The position numbers were made by a program, and so were the translations under genes. 5,657 bases of DNA from the IMG/VR virus record IMGVR_UViG_2609460218_000011; one strand, 5' to 3'. Source of the DNA: a virus (lineage: Duplodnaviria > Heunggongvirae > Uroviricota > Caudoviricetes). Positions 1 through 5,657 of the stretch are shown here, one piece after another (within the stretch, counting starts at the first letter, position 1; the number at the start of each line of letters is the position of its first letter). The notes beneath the pieces are model-generated. The model searched no databases. It saw nothing but the letters and a program-made list of their open reading frames with translations, and was not told the DNA's origin.

Positions 1-131
1 ATGAACTGCAGTTGCCATGTTTTACGGCAGTGAGAGCAGAGATAGCGCTGATGTCCGGCGGTGCTTTTGCCGTTACGCACCACCCCGTCAGTAGCTGAAC
101 AGGAGGGACAGCTGATAGAAACAGAAGCCAC
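1..131 (-). CDS. insA: IS1 InsA, N-terminal 43 codons; 3' part lies outside the window
   Basis: The minus-strand frame starting at GTG (complement of 129-131) translates to [43 protein letters not shown], which matches the InsA N-terminus from memory. The start lies ~55 nt inside the IRL, as expected for IS1. Confidence 0.85.
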
Positions 132-186
132 TGGAGCACCTCAAAAACACCATCATACACTAAATCAGTAAGTTGGCAGCATCACC
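1..186 (-). mobile_element. IS1-family insertion sequence, partial copy cut by the window edge; left inverted repeat (IRL) terminus at position 186
   Basis: Read on the minus strand from 186 down to 1, the sequence is the IS1 left end GGTGATGCTGCCAACTTACTGATTTAGTGTATGATGGTG... as I recall it. The same ~170 nt recur in forward orientation at 5487-5657. The element continues beyond the window start. Confidence 0.9.
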
Positions 187-1931: not shown

Positions 1932-2154
1932 AGCCTTACAGGAAATCGCTGATCAGCAGGCCGCACTCCGGCAAAAATTTTGCCCGGTGTGGCGCTTTTG
2001 CCACAAGGGAGCCCTTAGCCAGGCCGCAGTGCTGATACAAAAAAACATCCCACACCCCGAGTGGGTTTTTACAGCTGTGATGCTGTTCGTCGGCGATAAT
2101 CTCTCATCACTAAGGGAAACACTACATGACCCAGATGATTGTCCTTGCGCTTGA
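1621..2154 (+). CDS. Hypothetical protein, alternative frame; may be the continuation of the 1431 ORF after a frameshift
   Basis: This frame opens at 1597 (after TGA 1594-1596), 12 nt upstream of an A6 run (1609-1614). Internal ATG 1712 is preceded by GAGGTGGGA. The translation contains plausible helical stretches such as DKALQEIADQQAALRQK. Its end overlaps the 2126 start by 29 nt. Confidence 0.25.
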   Translation: MALLFCAPSAGEFLSLARQFSGAFPLPEVGRMSRMISSQFSLAISRMQIPARPVTSLPEPIMLSTQTTRSMSLAATIAQAATPAVTSPETLSSSLRQFMNARDKALQEIADQQAALRQKFCPVWRFCHKGALSQAAVLIQKNIPHPEWVFTAVMLFVGDNLSSLRETLHDPDDCPCA

Positions 2155-2701
2155 CGGGGAAGCCATTCTGCTGCGCAACATCACCGTCAGCGCCACCATG
2201 CAACTACCGGACAAAGATATGTCCGGACAATCAACCAGCACCACGAGCGCCCAGCAGGGAAACAAGGCCAAAGAGCTGCGCGTATCGGGGATTATTGATT
2301 TTAACGATGAAGCTATTTTGACCCGTATTTTTCAGCTTGCGGAGGCAACAGAAAGCAACGGAGCCAAAAAAACATACCGCATCGCCAACGCTACTGCTAA
2401 GGCGATTAATATGCGACAGGGTGTTTTTTCGGGCAGCATCGATGCCACGGAACAACAGGGCAAGATGCACTGGCAGGTCACCTTTACCCTCAGGGAAAAA
2501 TTAAGCGTGCCGGAAAAAGCATCGGCACGCAGTGGCTCACAGAAAACAATCGCAAAGCAGCAGACACAGAACGGCAGTGAGCAGGTACCGGATAAAGGAA
2601 TGAATACCCAGGAGACTTTCTGGAAAAATATCAATGATGGTATTGGCTCCGGTCTGGACTGGATTGGCATCGGGAGCGTGAAGGAGGAAGGGAAAACATG
2701 A
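2126..2701 (+). CDS. Hypothetical protein (191 aa), first gene of a coupled pair; probably phage-associated
   Basis: SD-like AAGGGA (2112-2117) lies 8 nt upstream of ATG 2126. Its stop TGA 2699-2701 overlaps the next start ATG 2698-2700 (ATGA), indicating translational coupling. No catalytic motif recognised by eye. Confidence 0.6.
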   Translation: MTQMIVLALDGEAILLRNITVSATMQLPDKDMSGQSTSTTSAQQGNKAKELRVSGIIDFNDEAILTRIFQLAEATESNGAKKTYRIANATAKAINMRQGVFSGSIDATEQQGKMHWQVTFTLREKLSVPEKASARSGSQKTIAKQQTQNGSEQVPDKGMNTQETFWKNINDGIGSGLDWIGIGSVKEEGKT

Positions 2702-4395
2702 AATTAATCCAACGCTGTATGATTAATGGCGAGCTGGCGGAAATTGCCGATATCAGCCTTGTTCTTACCCTGAATGCTGCCGGTCGTGGTTTCATTTCTG
2801 TTAATAATCTGCCACCCAAAAAAAGTCTTGCCGGCGCAATGATACAAATTGATCTCGGCCGTAATGGTGAGGCATGGCGCTATTTCTCCGGCTACATTGA
2901 ACGCGATCAACCCGCCGAAAATGGCTCACGCCGCCTTTTTATCCGTGAAGCAGCTGCCGTGCTGGATTTTGATTTCCCCTGCTCCATGCAACATCCAACG
3001 TTACGGGATGTACTCGATAATCTGGGTAAACAAAGCGGCATCGTTTTCATCACGCCAGACGCGGATTACGTCGGTACTCCGACACCTTACATCACCCACA
3101 GCGGCAGCGGAACACAACTGCTTAGCCAGCTGGGGCGAGCATTCAGTATCAGCGATTACGTCTGGCATCCAATGCCGGACGGTTCCGTATTTGTGGGAAG
3201 CGCATCGGATTCACGGTTTGCCAGTATTACCATGCCGGATATTCCGCAACAGTACACACTCGGGCAAAGCGGCGGAAACAGCATCGACATCATGTTTATG
3301 GAAACTGTGCGACCGGGCGTGAACCTTCCAGCCGGGCGCATTACCCGTGTAGCCCTCAACAACGAGAAAATGACCCTGACATGGGAACGCCTTACCACCA
3401 CGGGTAGCCCTGTTTCCAAATCACCATTACGCAGACAGATGGAAACACAGTTCCCGGAACTGGCCAGCGGTACTCTACATACCAGGCTGGCGCGCGTCAT
3501 TGCCCCAACGGAATCCGTCACCCTGGGCGATGTTGCCGACAGTTTCCGCCCACGCTACGCCGTCGATGTGCAACTGCTTGATGAGAACGGCAACGATAAA
3601 AGCGATACGCCTGTTTATCCGGCAGTACCACTCCCCGTCCCGATGGCTGGTAGCGAGGCGGGATGTTTTGCCTACCCGCCGGCTGGCACCATCGTGGAAA
3701 TATCCAACATTGAAGGACGACCGGATAAACCTGTCATCAGGCAAATCTTACCCGCAGGCCATAACCTGCCTGATGTAAAGCCCGGCGAACAGCTGCAGCA
3801 ACAGCGCGCAGAAGTGTTTCAGCGCGTCACAACTGACGGAAGCTGGCACAGAGAAACCGACCAGCAAATCAGGGAGCATTCAGCCAGGCGAACCATTAAC
3901 AGCGATCAGGAAGAACGCACAACAACAACCAGAACAACAACAGTCCAGGCAAACGACATAACCAGTGTTCTTGGTACCAGCAAACTGATGACAGGCCAGA
4001 CAGAACACCTTACTACCGGCAATTATGCGATCGCAGCCGGTGAGCATATCCAGATGGTAGCGCAGGATTTGCTGACTCAACTCAAAGGGGCGATATCCAC
4101 CATTGAGCATGACCTCACCGAAAACGTGGGAGGCCGCAGAACATGCAGAGCGGACGGCGGTCTGGAGTTTACCGCTCCGACAGTATTTATTGGTCGCGGC
4201 GGCTCGCGGGAAAAGTCAGGGCTTAACCTGCTGACGTTGCTGATCGATATTCTGGATCTGATTCAATTACTGGCCACACATACAGCAAACCACACCCATA
4301 GCAACACTGACGCACCAATGAACAGCAGCGAACTTGCCGCAGATGCCCTGCAGGCGACGAGCCTGCGCGAAAAATACGGCGACATTATCGCCTGA
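2698..4395 (+). CDS. Hypothetical protein (565 aa), possibly a phage tail/fibre-associated structural protein
   Basis: Longest ORF in the window. AGGAGG (2682-2687) and GGGAA lie upstream of ATG 2698, which is coupled to the upstream gene. It contains a Thr-rich low-complexity tract (ERTTTTRTTTVQ, about nt 3910-3947) and a C-terminal His-rich motif ATHTANHTHSNTD (about nt 4273-4311). It is followed by a hairpin terminator. No NTPase or nuclease motif recognised. Confidence 0.7.
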   Translation: MKLIQRCMINGELAEIADISLVLTLNAAGRGFISVNNLPPKKSLAGAMIQIDLGRNGEAWRYFSGYIERDQPAENGSRRLFIREAAAVLDFDFPCSMQHPTLRDVLDNLGKQSGIVFITPDADYVGTPTPYITHSGSGTQLLSQLGRAFSISDYVWHPMPDGSVFVGSASDSRFASITMPDIPQQYTLGQSGGNSIDIMFMETVRPGVNLPAGRITRVALNNEKMTLTWERLTTTGSPVSKSPLRRQMETQFPELASGTLHTRLARVIAPTESVTLGDVADSFRPRYAVDVQLLDENGNDKSDTPVYPAVPLPVPMAGSEAGCFAYPPAGTIVEISNIEGRPDKPVIRQILPAGHNLPDVKPGEQLQQQRAEVFQRVTTDGSWHRETDQQIREHSARRTINSDQEERTTTTRTTTVQANDITSVLGTSKLMTGQTEHLTTGNYAIAAGEHIQMVAQDLLTQLKGAISTIEHDLTENVGGRRTCRADGGLEFTAPTVFIGRGGSREKSGLNLLTLLIDILDLIQLLATHTANHTHSNTDAPMNSSELAADALQATSLREKYGDIIA

Positions 4396-4435
4396 ACACC
4401 AGACATAAAAGCCACATAAACGCCCCATCACGCAA

Positions 4436-4459
4436 CGCACGGTCCCGGCCGTGCGTTTT
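4436..4459 (+). terminator. Putative Rho-independent terminator of the 191/565-aa operon
   Basis: Stem CGCACGG (4436-4442), loop TCCCGG, stem CCGTGCG (4449-4455), then TTTT (4456-4459); 41 nt downstream of the stop at 4395. The T-tract is short. Confidence 0.5.
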
Positions 4460-4935
4460 CATATCTGCCACCTGATTAATCGTTCTGCGTGCCATTCTGG
4501 CGCTGTATGCGCACACCGCGCAAACGGCGTGACGTAAAGCGTGAGGTGACGTAAACCGCGCTACCCCCTCCAACCCGCGGGTTTTGTGTCGAAACACTTT
4601 TTCAGTTTTCTGCCGTGCAAAAATGACCGCCAGCCCGCGCAGCGACTGAGGGAAAAGCGAAGATCTGAAATTTCACGCTTTGAAATTTTTTGCAGTTTTC
4701 AGCGAGTTTTTTACGATCTCATAAATGGCAGGAGCAATGAAACTGCATGATATTAAAAGAGTTTTCATGCTTTGCGCGAGACGAAAAACGATCAAAAAGG
4801 ATCGCGACAAAAAATCGTCAAACAACGAAGCCAGACGCGGCGCGGCCTGCGTAAAATTGAGAGTCAAAATTAAACTGAAAAAAGGATCAATAACGCGCCT
4901 CGATCGCACATGACGATCTACGCAGCAACAGAGCG

Positions 4936-4958
4936 AAAAAAACCGGCGCGAACGCCGG
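4936..4958 (-). terminator. Strong Rho-independent terminator acting on the minus strand
   Basis: On the minus strand: CCGGCG (comp. 4953-4958), UUCG tetraloop, CGCCGG (comp. 4943-4948), then seven U (comp. 4936-4942). The plus strand has no T-tract after the hairpin, so it is directional. Confidence 0.55.
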
Positions 4959-5000
4959 CGGAAGCATGTATCAAATGCGTGACTGAATAATGTATAAGGT
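4936..5000 (-). ncRNA. Candidate small RNA of about 60 nt, transcribed divergently from the hok-type promoter
   Basis: Minus-strand sigma70-like promoter: -35 TTGAGG (complement of 5030-5035), 18-bp spacer, -10 TAAAAT (complement of 5006-5011). This predicts a start near 4998-5000 and termination at the 4936-4958 terminator. No ORF of note lies inside. Confidence 0.25.
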
Positions 5001-5039
5001 CGGGAATTTTACATCAGAAGACCGACAAACCTCAACGGA

Positions 5040-5069
5040 TTGAAACAAGGGAAAAAACCAGGCTAGAAT
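5040..5069 (+). promoter_or_regulatory. Sigma70-like promoter of the hok-type toxin transcript
   Basis: -35 TTGAAA (5040-5045), 18-bp spacer, -10 TAGAAT (5064-5069). The predicted start near 5076 coincides with the first base of the 5' fold-back element. Confidence 0.45.
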
Positions 5070-5075
5070 TCGCGC

Positions 5076-5427
5076 GGGTGCCTTTCGGCTGATGGCTGGA
5101 GGGAATACCTGAAGGCCGGATGTGGAAAGGCCCCGGAAAACATTTTTGTTTAACCGAGGCCCTAACCATCTACCCTAGACAAGTGATAGGTTAGCGCCTC
5201 CCCGAAAAAGGAGCAAGCGCTATGTCGCAAAAATCGCTTACAGCCATCACGTTCTGCGTGACGGCAATCCTCATCATCTGGATGTTGCACGGTTCACTGT
5301 GTGAGATACGGATGAGTTTTTGGGGAGCGGAGTTTGCGGCGTTCTTACAGTGTAAACAGTAAGGAAACCGCGGCGGGGGAGCAATCCCCCGTCAATCGGT
5401 TGCTAAGGTAAGGTCGTAAAGGCACCC
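5076..5427 (+). other. hok/gef-type toxin mRNA unit with 5' (tac-like) and 3' (fbi-like) complementary elements
   Basis: GGGTGCCTTT at 5076-5085 is the exact reverse complement of AAAGGCACCC at 5418-5427 (10/10). A GC-rich hairpin (GGGGGA-GCAA-TCCCCC, 5375-5390) sits in the 3' UTR. This matches the long-range 5'/3' pairing known for hok mRNAs. Confidence 0.55.
5222..5362 (+). CDS. Hok/Gef-family type I toxin (46 aa), small membrane peptide
   Basis: Translation: MSQKSLTAITFCVTAILIIWMLHGSLCEIRMSFWGAEFAAFLQCKQ. It has an N-terminal hydrophobic helix, the conserved SLCEIR motif and a C-terminal Cys, as in Hok-family peptides. SD AAGGAG (5208-5213) lies 8 nt upstream of ATG 5222; stop TAA 5360-5362. 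Not in the ORF track because it is under 60 codons. The specific paralogue is not recognised, so no symbol is given. Confidence 0.75.
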   Translation: MSQKSLTAITFCVTAILIIWMLHGSLCEIRMSFWGAEFAAFLQCKQ

Positions 5428-5486: not shown

Positions 5487-5657
5487 GGTGATGCTGCCAA
5501 CTTACTGATTTAGTGTATGATGGTGTTTTTGAGGTGCTCCAGTGGCTTCTGTTTCTATCAGCTGTCCCTCCTGTTCAGCTACTGACGGGGTGGTGCGTAA
5601 CGGCAAAAGCACCGCCGGACATCAGCGCTATCTCTGCTCTCACTGCCGTAAAACACT
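5487..5657 (+). mobile_element. IS1-family insertion sequence, partial copy cut by the window edge; IRL terminus at 5487
   Basis: GGTGATGCTGCCAACTTACTGATTTAGTG... in forward orientation, the reverse complement of positions 16-186. The last two bases (5656-5657, CT) differ from the left copy (TG). Confidence 0.9.
5542..5657 (+). CDS. insA: IS1 InsA, N-terminal portion; continues past the window end
   Basis: GTG 5542 opens a frame translating [38 protein letters not shown]..., matching the InsA N-terminus. Confidence 0.85.

Follow-up and report, generated by a model that had tools for sequence, protein, structure and literature searches.

A conserved array of GATC-containing repeats beside the putative cos site of a defective HP1/ESSI-2-type prophage

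The prophage fragment and its GATC cluster

The stretch of DNA analysed here, 5,657 bp of the virus record IMGVR_UViG_2609460218_000011 and called the window below, carries a dense cluster of GATC tetramers in the DNA between a phage tail operon and a hok/sok toxin-antitoxin cassette. We present evidence that this cluster lies beside the cohesive-end packaging site (cos) of a prophage related to phage HP1, and that it may be a working part of that site. The features of the window are collected in Table 1.

The window represents a 5.3-kb prophage fragment flanked by two inverted IS1 ends. The two window ends (1-186 and 5487-5657) hold identical 36-amino-acid open reading frames, and the left one shows AAGTTGGCAGCATCACC, which we take to be the IS1 terminal repeat in reverse complement. 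A locus that is 99.8% identical to the window (L002) has an annotated IS1A transposase next to it. The upstream genes, which the initial annotation had described as a phage-like operon, are the tail module of an HP1/ESSI-2-type prophage of the P2 family. The 565-amino-acid product of the last tail gene shows 42-48% identity to the baseplate protein of HP1, HP2, ESSI-2-like phages and phiO18P (tblastn). The hairpin behind this gene is probably the terminator of the tail operon, and a second terminator on the minus strand, in the hok-side spacer, would protect cos against leftward transcription.

The initial annotation had noted seven GATC sites, well in excess of chance, in ACGATC or GATCGC contexts with A-tracts and outside any convincing gene, and this description held in each respect. 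All seven positions were exact. The 257-bp stretch that they span has a G+C content of 41% and holds 7 of the 15 GATCs of the window, against an expectation of 0.88 from base composition (order-0) or a mean of 1.35 after dinucleotide shuffling. Seven or more GATCs were reached in 0.02% of 5000 shuffles of the region, and a scan statistic on whole-window shuffles, which accepts any 257-bp span with seven GATCs, gave P = 0.0026. The window as a whole is not enriched (15 observed, 18.9 expected). The contexts were found as described, with ACGATC at 4713, 4788 and 4913, GATCGC at 4800 and 4902, and A5 or A6 tracts at 4784, 4794, 4809 and 4878.

The GATC region is non-coding. A 62-amino-acid open reading frame at 4725-4913 is broken or frame-shifted in nearly all homologues, the window itself having a 1-nt deletion near 4796, and no open reading frame on either strand is common to the window and the versions from Edwardsiella, the divergent Escherichia coli prophage L004 or locus L012. 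A small protein was rejected on these grounds, since this frame and the others are not kept in frame or in distant relatives. An RNA gene was likewise ruled out. The Rfam scan of the whole window (E <= 1) returned only the sok/hok leader and a chance match to RsmY, with none in the GATC region, and folding of the two strands of 4650-4900 gave no stable structure compared with shuffled sequence (z = -0.56 and -0.14).

Table 1. Features of the window (coordinates are those of the whole 5,657-bp stretch)
Feature	Position	Strand	Remarks
IS1 copy end	1-186	-	Terminal repeat faces inward; reads ...AAGTTGGCAGCATCACC; cuts off the left side of the prophage remnant
HP1 ORF34-family baseplate protein gene	2126-2701	+	Pfam PF25759 HP1_ORF34, E = 3e-53
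Last tail gene, 565-amino-acid HP1 orf35 homologue	2698-4395	+	Annotated baseplate or Vgr-like; tblastn
Perfect 9-bp hairpin, then TTTTC	4434-4457	+	Inverted repeat search; kept in satellites L005 and L013
Two direct repeats GTGACGTAAA(G/C)CG	4529-4558	+	Directly left of the cohesive-end segment; near-invariant in the satellites and in all other homologues
Putative cohesive-end (cosN) segment CTACCCCCTCCAACCC, then GCGGG	4561-4576		Motif alignment; position good to about 3 bp
TTTTTCAGTTT motif, copy 1	4598-4608	+	Distance from the DNA end, on its right: 32-36 bp (ev015, HP1), about 46 bp (P2)
Conserved box ACCGCCAGCCCGCGC	4626-4640	+	Group A (group of the window); ACCGCCAGACCGCGC in group B (ESSI-2-like); CCCAGACCGCGCCAG in phiO18P
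GATC 1 (AGATCT)	4662-4665		Intact in 16/16 of group A; aligns with AGATCT in HP1; AAATGC in satellites
TTTTGCAGTTT motif, copy 2	4688-4698	+	One mismatch to copy 1; TTTTTCAG in several homologues
GATC 2	4715-4718		Intact in 13/16; shifted 1 nt in L004, 12 nt in Edwardsiella L018
GATC 3 and GATC 4	4790-4793, 4800-4803		One helical turn apart; both intact in 16/16
TTTTTCAGTTT motif, copy 3, inverted	4872-4882	-	Perfect complement of copy 1
GATC 5	4885-4888		Intact in 16/16; last 4 bp of the cargo-independent block; homology to YafO-cargo versions ends at 4888
GATC 6 and GATC 7	4902-4905, 4915-4918		Intact in 13/16; lost or replaced where the cargo differs
Intrinsic terminator, GCCGGCG-TTCG-CGCCGGT then T7	4942-4959	-	In the hok-side spacer
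hok/sok toxin-antitoxin cassette	5040-5362	+	Promoter-like site 5040-5069; hok mRNA leader/sok 5076-5235; Hok open reading frame 5222-5362
Second IS1 copy end	5487-5657	+	Reads GGTGATGCTGCCAACTTACTGAT...; inverted relative to the first; mirrors 1-186

Probable position of the cos site

The cos site of phages of the HP1/ESSI-2 type lies just past the last tail gene. In HP1 and phiO18P, the cohesive ends are defined by experiment. The annotated cohesive end of HP1 lies 192 bp past orf35, with the attachment site attP and the integrase gene int within the next 700 bp, and phiO18P has its annotated 16-nt cohesive end, CTCATCCGCTCCCGCC followed by TGCGGG, 215 bp past the homologous gene. The window sequence CTACCCCCTCCAACCC aligns with this phiO18P end and with the HP1 junction, in which CCACT is followed by TCCTTCCCC. 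The RefSeq record of ESSI2_ev015 ends 237 bp past its orf35-type gene, and both of its ends are collinear with window position 4565/4566. One of these record ends carries a Nextera adapter, which indicates that the terminus is a physical DNA end. The adapter is untrimmed (reverse complement of CTGTCTCTTATACACATCTGACGCTGCCGACGA) and, together with about 15 further bases, contaminates the genome end at positions 1-48 of the record (L015, NC_049395.1). The ends of the ESSI2_ev040 record were uninformative, as that record does not include the cos region.

The motifs on the two sides of the proposed cut agree with this placement. The direct repeats to its left have counterparts, CACGGAAA or CACGTAAA, left of cos in HP1 and phiO18P; to its right, TTTTTCAGTT is found 32-46 bp from the DNA end in ev015, HP1 and P2, and a CCAG(A/C)CCGCGC box is common to the alignments of the window and its HP1-type relatives. 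A P2-style end was also considered, as GGCGTGACGTAAAGCGT at 4526 resembled the 19-nt cohesive end of P2 and 186. The alignments to HP1, phiO18P and ev015 put the end at 4561-4576, and the stretch at 4526 is one of the left-side repeats.

A further set of homologues was found in what looks, from its gene content only, like a capsid-encoding satellite of HP1-type phages. This element of about 12 kb lies next to hpt and encodes a P4 alpha-like primase, an integrase, a Delta-like zinc finger, an Icd-like protein and its own capsid protein of the P2 family; a second recombinase and hok are also present (L005 5450-12264; L100 10461-22632; also L013 and L101). These four loci match window positions 4434-4699 at 81-85% identity. 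The element occurs in nine genomes, at least five of which also hold the phage-type block (E. coli A36 and STEC313 are examples of strains with both), which is present in about 1% of genomes, and this co-occurrence fits satellites that borrow the packaging machinery of a helper.

Taken together, five independent lines (the HP1 end, the phiO18P end, the alignment of the junctions, the ev015 ends and the flanking motifs) agree, with the satellites as a sixth, and we therefore hold with high confidence that the GATC cluster belongs to the cos flank of an HP1-type prophage. The exact position of the cohesive end at 4561-4576 is inferred by aligning short motifs. The window and the cos sites of HP1 and phiO18P have in common the place between the last tail gene (orf35 type) and the attP/int side, a similar pyrimidine-rich cohesive-end segment, CACG(G/T)AAA-type repeats on the left and TTTTTCAGTT about 35 bp to the right. 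They differ in that the likeness, also to the ev015 junction, is confined to these short motifs, with low identity over the longer stretches outside them, and in that the lineage of the window has a cargo hotspot, here occupied by hok/sok, between cos and the right attachment site attR.

The initial annotation had also suggested that the cluster is the remnant of a replication origin of a plasmid-like element which delivered hok. GATC clusters do occur in oriC and P1 oriR, hok/sok is a classic plasmid module, and intact relatives of this prophage carry the partition genes parM and parR. However, a search for DnaA boxes with up to one mismatch found none anywhere in the window, which also holds no rep gene next to the cluster or elsewhere, and P2-family phages start replication inside the rep gene. 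The non-coding DNA at 4400-5060 was found in 51 of 5426 complete E. coli genomes, chromosomal every time, and has no match at the DNA level in the plasmid or phage collections. Moreover, the block is present without hok, and its repeats are the cos-flank motifs common to HP1 and P2. We consider an origin remnant to be extremely improbable.

This placement makes it possible to locate cos in a widespread group of enterobacterial P2-family prophages. It is of practical use for drawing the borders of the prophages and of their cargo hotspot, and for predicting chromosomal islands that are mobilisable through cos.

Conservation, geometry and possible function of the array

The non-coding block to the right of cos is about 320 bp long and ends at 4888. 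It would form the left end of the virion chromosome. Within the block, TTTT(T/G)CAGTTT occurs three times, and there are five GATC-containing elements (aGATCt, cGATCt, cGATCa, gGATCg and gGATCa), which lie 85-325 bp right of the cohesive-end segment and all on one side of the putative cut. Homology between versions with different cargo ends at 4888, which indicates that GATCs 1-5 belong to the phage-linked unit and not to the toxin; those at 4902 and 4915 sit in a spacer specific to the hok-carrying versions. The cargo after the block may be hok alone, hok with Com and methyltransferase genes, a YafO toxin module with a nuclease gene, a DUF4875 gene or a serine acetyltransferase gene. As the same block follows the tail operon whether the cargo is hok, the YafO module or the nuclease, the earlier proposal that the cluster was brought in by the toxin element is not supported.

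These observations also bear on a Dam-sensitive transcriptional switch, in which a phase-variable or methylation-sensitive promoter in the cluster would control the cargo genes past cos. It is generally known that GATC clusters mark such switches in enterobacteria, and cargo genes (hok, YafO, nuclease, Com and methyltransferase) always follow the block. On the other hand, a search of 4560-4890, which did not cover Lrp and OxyR sites, revealed no promoter-like site, the only one on the plus strand being that of hok at 5040-5069. There is no constant downstream gene for such a promoter to serve, as the cargo differs between the prophages, and in ev015 it is transcribed towards cos. The array keeps its place relative to the cos motifs rather than to any gene, and the region shows no stable RNA structure and no Rfam match. 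The cluster does not resemble a phase-variable promoter of the pap or agn43 type, and we regard a transcriptional switch, the main idea of the initial annotation, as very unlikely.

The conservation of the array was examined in an alignment of 16 non-redundant relatives from the group of the window (group A), which come from E. coli, E. albertii and Edwardsiella and include the divergent prophage L004. The GTDB scan gave only three loci, and the diversity came from the IMG/VR scan. Sites 1, 3, 4 and 5 are kept in all 16 relatives while the bases immediately beside them vary, and the cluster noted in the initial annotation is conserved across genomes. Site 2 has shifted in some lineages, indicating that it was moved or re-created and not merely inherited in place. 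GATCs 3 and 4 are spaced by 10 bp in the window and by 11 bp in nearly all homologues, and an 11-bp pair recurs in the ESSI-2-like group B. The shorter spacing of the window is due to the loss of 1 nt at about 4796, in the A-run between the two sites, which is shared with an IMG/VR relative (L024). In a permutation analysis, five random tetramers of this stretch were as conserved as the GATCs in only 0.03% of permutations (P = 0.0003). The blocks of Edwardsiella and L004 are 62% and 68% identical to that of the window, and each has five GATCs. The satellite blocks, at 59-60% identity, have none of the five, all the GATCs of the phage having been replaced. These data suggest that the GATCs are, in all likelihood, under selection.

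Similar arrays recur in more distant phages. In the 34 non-redundant ESSI-2-like loci (46-48% protein identity), GATCs are found at -11, +116, +127, +191 and sometimes +202 relative to the first TTTTTCAG, and a conserved AACTGAAAAA, the equivalent of motif copy 3, stands at the far right of the group B alignment and is also found in the satellites. The ratio of observed to expected GATCs is 6.7 in the group of the window (3 representatives) and 4.1 in the ESSI-2-like phages (34 representatives), with GATC far ahead of all other palindromic tetramers in both groups. The blocks reach 9-17 GATCs per kb; the tail genes have about 3.5 per kb, and the DNA farther downstream has 2-5 per kb. In phiO18P, GGATC occurs three times within 30 bp (+93 to +121), and HP1 has two GATCs, one of which aligns with site 1 of the window. 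Pseudomonas phage phi3, the host of which is presumably Dam-less, has a recognisable cos core and only one GATC in the roughly 400 bp to its right, in a comparison that consists of this single phage with its cos placed by eye.

A compositional or historical accident, carried along with the conserved cos flank and without a function of its own, would also produce shared sites, since the sequences are homologous and part of the sharing could reflect descent; the satellites, moreover, do without GATCs. This explanation is hard to reconcile with the retention of the sites at about 60% identity, against 0/5 in satellites that are equally diverged, with the result of the permutation analysis, with the presence of arrays at other positions in ESSI-2-like phages and phiO18P, or with the phasing and flank asymmetry described below. 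It is accordingly given little credence here.

The five sites of the window lie on one face of the helix, with phases of 0.95, 0.95, 0.03, 0.97 and 0.99 of a 10.6-bp period (P about 0.001). In the ESSI-2-like loci, the mean Rayleigh R was 0.93 against 0.48 in the null, and GATC ranked first of 32 tetramers. A bent-DNA structure was tried and rejected, as the A-tracts are without helical phasing and the GATCs alone are phased. A terminator formed by the GATC 3-4 pair was rejected as well; the minus strand at 4788-4805 is hairpin-like, but the ESSI-2-like phages have direct repeats at that place. The five elements of the window are co-oriented in their flanks. In its group, A stands at -2 in 94% of sites and T at +2 in 0%; in the ESSI-2-like phages G stands at -1 in 82% and C at +1 in 2%, and phiO18P has AGGATC three times. 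Asymmetric and co-oriented flanks point to an asymmetric reader, and the asymmetry is not predicted if a palindromic reader such as Dam or SeqA acts alone.

An alternative is a pure Dam/SeqA array, in which host SeqA alone, and no phage protein, reads the hemimethylated GATCs on one face and sequesters fresh phage or prophage DNA beside cos. SeqA reportedly prefers hemimethylated GATCs on one face of the helix, as described by Brendler and Austin. As judged from the sequence, at least two GATCs do lie on one face within about three turns, namely the pair at 4790 and 4800, 10 bp apart, with all five sites in phase, and the 10-11-bp pair would suit this preference. The flanks vary between lineages while the GATC cores stay, and site 2 is shifted rather than fixed. 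However, the strong asymmetry of the co-oriented flanks is not explained by a symmetric reader, and most of the spacings (53, 75 and 85 bp) exceed the range of about 31 bp over which SeqA binds cooperatively. The window resembles the SeqA-bound clusters of oriC and P1 oriR in its dense one-face GATCs with a one-turn pair, and differs in having no origin features, in spacings that are mostly too long for cooperative SeqA binding, and in its asymmetric flanks. We consider it unlikely that SeqA alone accounts for the array.

Judged from the sequences compared here, the conserved, phased and directional array is part of these cos sites, which can be described as a cos packaging signal with a GATC repeat array. 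As to its function, we favour, with moderate confidence, the reading that the GATC cluster is the right-hand accessory part of cos, a flanking array of GATC-containing protein-binding repeats in a defective prophage of the HP1/ESSI-2 type. The GATC-cored repeats, interleaved with the TTTTTCAGTTT repeats, would constitute a cosB-like platform on which a packaging protein assembles beside the cut. This proposal is based on the flank asymmetry, which fits direct repeats bound by an asymmetric protein, and the small terminase subunit, of the gpM type, would be the obvious candidate. As in lambda cosB, the accessory protein-binding repeats would stand on the cosN side that becomes the left chromosome end, although there is no sequence relationship, the lambda R sites are not GATC-based, and an IHF bend is needed in lambda. 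The recognition cores are at the same time Dam sites, so that assembly or cleavage at cos would be expected to respond to the methylation of phage circles that have just been replicated. The identity of the binder and any role of methylation were both arrived at by inference, and a gating of packaging by methylation, proposed by analogy to phage P1, appears possible but rather doubtful.

The pac site of P1 has seven GATC hexamers that are bound by pacase, and their methylation controls cleavage (PMC10028697). The two systems resemble each other in that several short GATC-cored repeats accompany a packaging-cleavage site, which in the window is putative. P1 has seven such repeats within about 160 bp, the window five to seven over about 260 bp. 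P1 carries its own Dam-type methyltransferase, and so do some relatives of the prophage of the window. ESSI2_ev015 has a D12-class (Dam-family) methyltransferase next to rep, and HP1 has a Dam protein (PF05869). The intact group A prophage that was examined (AJ1) has no annotated methyltransferase gene in its early region, and several relatives have a Com gene and an N6_N4 methyltransferase gene near attR. The systems differ in that P1 is a headful phage with an unrelated pacase, and its TGATCA/G hexamers stand on two sides of the cut with an IHF site between them, whereas the window has a cos-type site and another consensus. With regard to the Dam-linked reading of the initial annotation, the link to Dam is reasonable for a non-coding and conserved cluster that departs from chance and is probably read through its GATC cores, while the origin, phase-switch and toxin-element parts of that reading were not supported.

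Several observations weigh against a packaging array. The satellites, which have retained the cos core along with the TTTTTCAG repeats, have no GATC at all in the 815-bp cos-hok intergenic region, so the array is not required for whatever packaging the satellites undergo. It may be regulatory, or a specificity factor encoded by the satellites may take its place there. The lineages do not have one flank consensus (A-N-GATC in one, GGATC in the other), and one common reader is therefore not established. Compared with P1 pac, the array stands on one side of cos only and is without the hexamer consensus, and no IHF consensus was found in the block. In addition, the homologues are related by descent, so that the counts per locus are not independent, and the Dam-less control amounts to one phage with a cos placed by eye.

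A bolder extension of the packaging reading would be that HP1-type cos phages gate their packaging by adenine methylation, the terminase assembling or cutting only at the right methylation state, and that the GATC-free satellites escape this gate and are packaged ahead of their helper. We regard this as speculative and, on balance, improbable. If it were true, cos phages would have their own counterpart of P1 pac, which belongs to a headful phage and is the only case studied in depth, and the phage Dam genes would gain a function, explaining why these phages so often carry their own Dam. It would also represent a new way for satellites to outcompete their helpers. In the limited open-access literature consulted, no earlier description of GATC arrays at HP1-type cos was found. 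The copy of the cos-flank element in the window is probably a relic, because its prophage is a remnant bounded by IS1, and a related superinfecting phage might still use it.

Cargo genes and other features of the locus

The gene order of an intact relative, which lies between pdxB and flk in E. coli AJ1 (NZ_OZ547217), is int, C, cox, rep, parM, parR, ogr, portal, terminase, scaffold, capsid and further genes up to the tail, followed by the orf35 homologue, the cos-flank block, hok and the attR side. The parM gene and the parR-like partition gene of this prophage lie between rep and ogr (L003 20189-21467) and are present besides hok/sok. Partition and hok/sok are the two stability modules of plasmid R1. 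Because the AJ1-type phage carries both, there are hints that it may persist as a plasmid in addition to its integrated form.

The hok/sok cassette of the window (5076-5362) is a divergent chromosomal or prophage variant, in which the Hok open reading frame and the promoter-like site at 5040-5069 are intact. The sok match in Rfam (RF01794, 46.3 bits, E = 3e-8) stays under the gathering score of 59, and the Hok open reading frame matches the Pfam family HOK_GEF (E = 4e-7), with homologues annotated as Hok/Gef. L004 matches the hok/sok of the window from 5052 on at 93% identity, although its neighbourhood is very different.

The stretch between cos and attR acts as a cargo hotspot in which hok, the YafO module, an ATP-dependent nuclease, a TM2 protein, a serine acetyltransferase and a DUF4875 protein were found. 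Near attR, at raiA, a gene of a Com-family regulator overlaps an N6_N4-type DNA methyltransferase gene in four loci (L007 5207-6155; L008 4586-5534; L010 4217-5165; L011 4649-5597). This pair resembles com-mom of phage Mu, except that it includes a methyltransferase. RefSeq gives the name iron-sulfur cluster assembly scaffold protein SufA to the gene upstream of the YafO toxin (L004 6274-7053; L012 3595-4221). Judging by where the gene lies, this name is probably a mis-annotation, and the gene would encode the cognate antitoxin or an unrelated cargo protein.

The tail fragment, cos and hok/sok between inverted IS1 ends, each of which turns the same terminal repeat inward, form an arrangement that is like a composite transposon. 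In the 99.8% identical locus of E. coli CP131_Sichuan, IS1A lies farther to the left, and a serine acetyltransferase gene and copA are found on the right.

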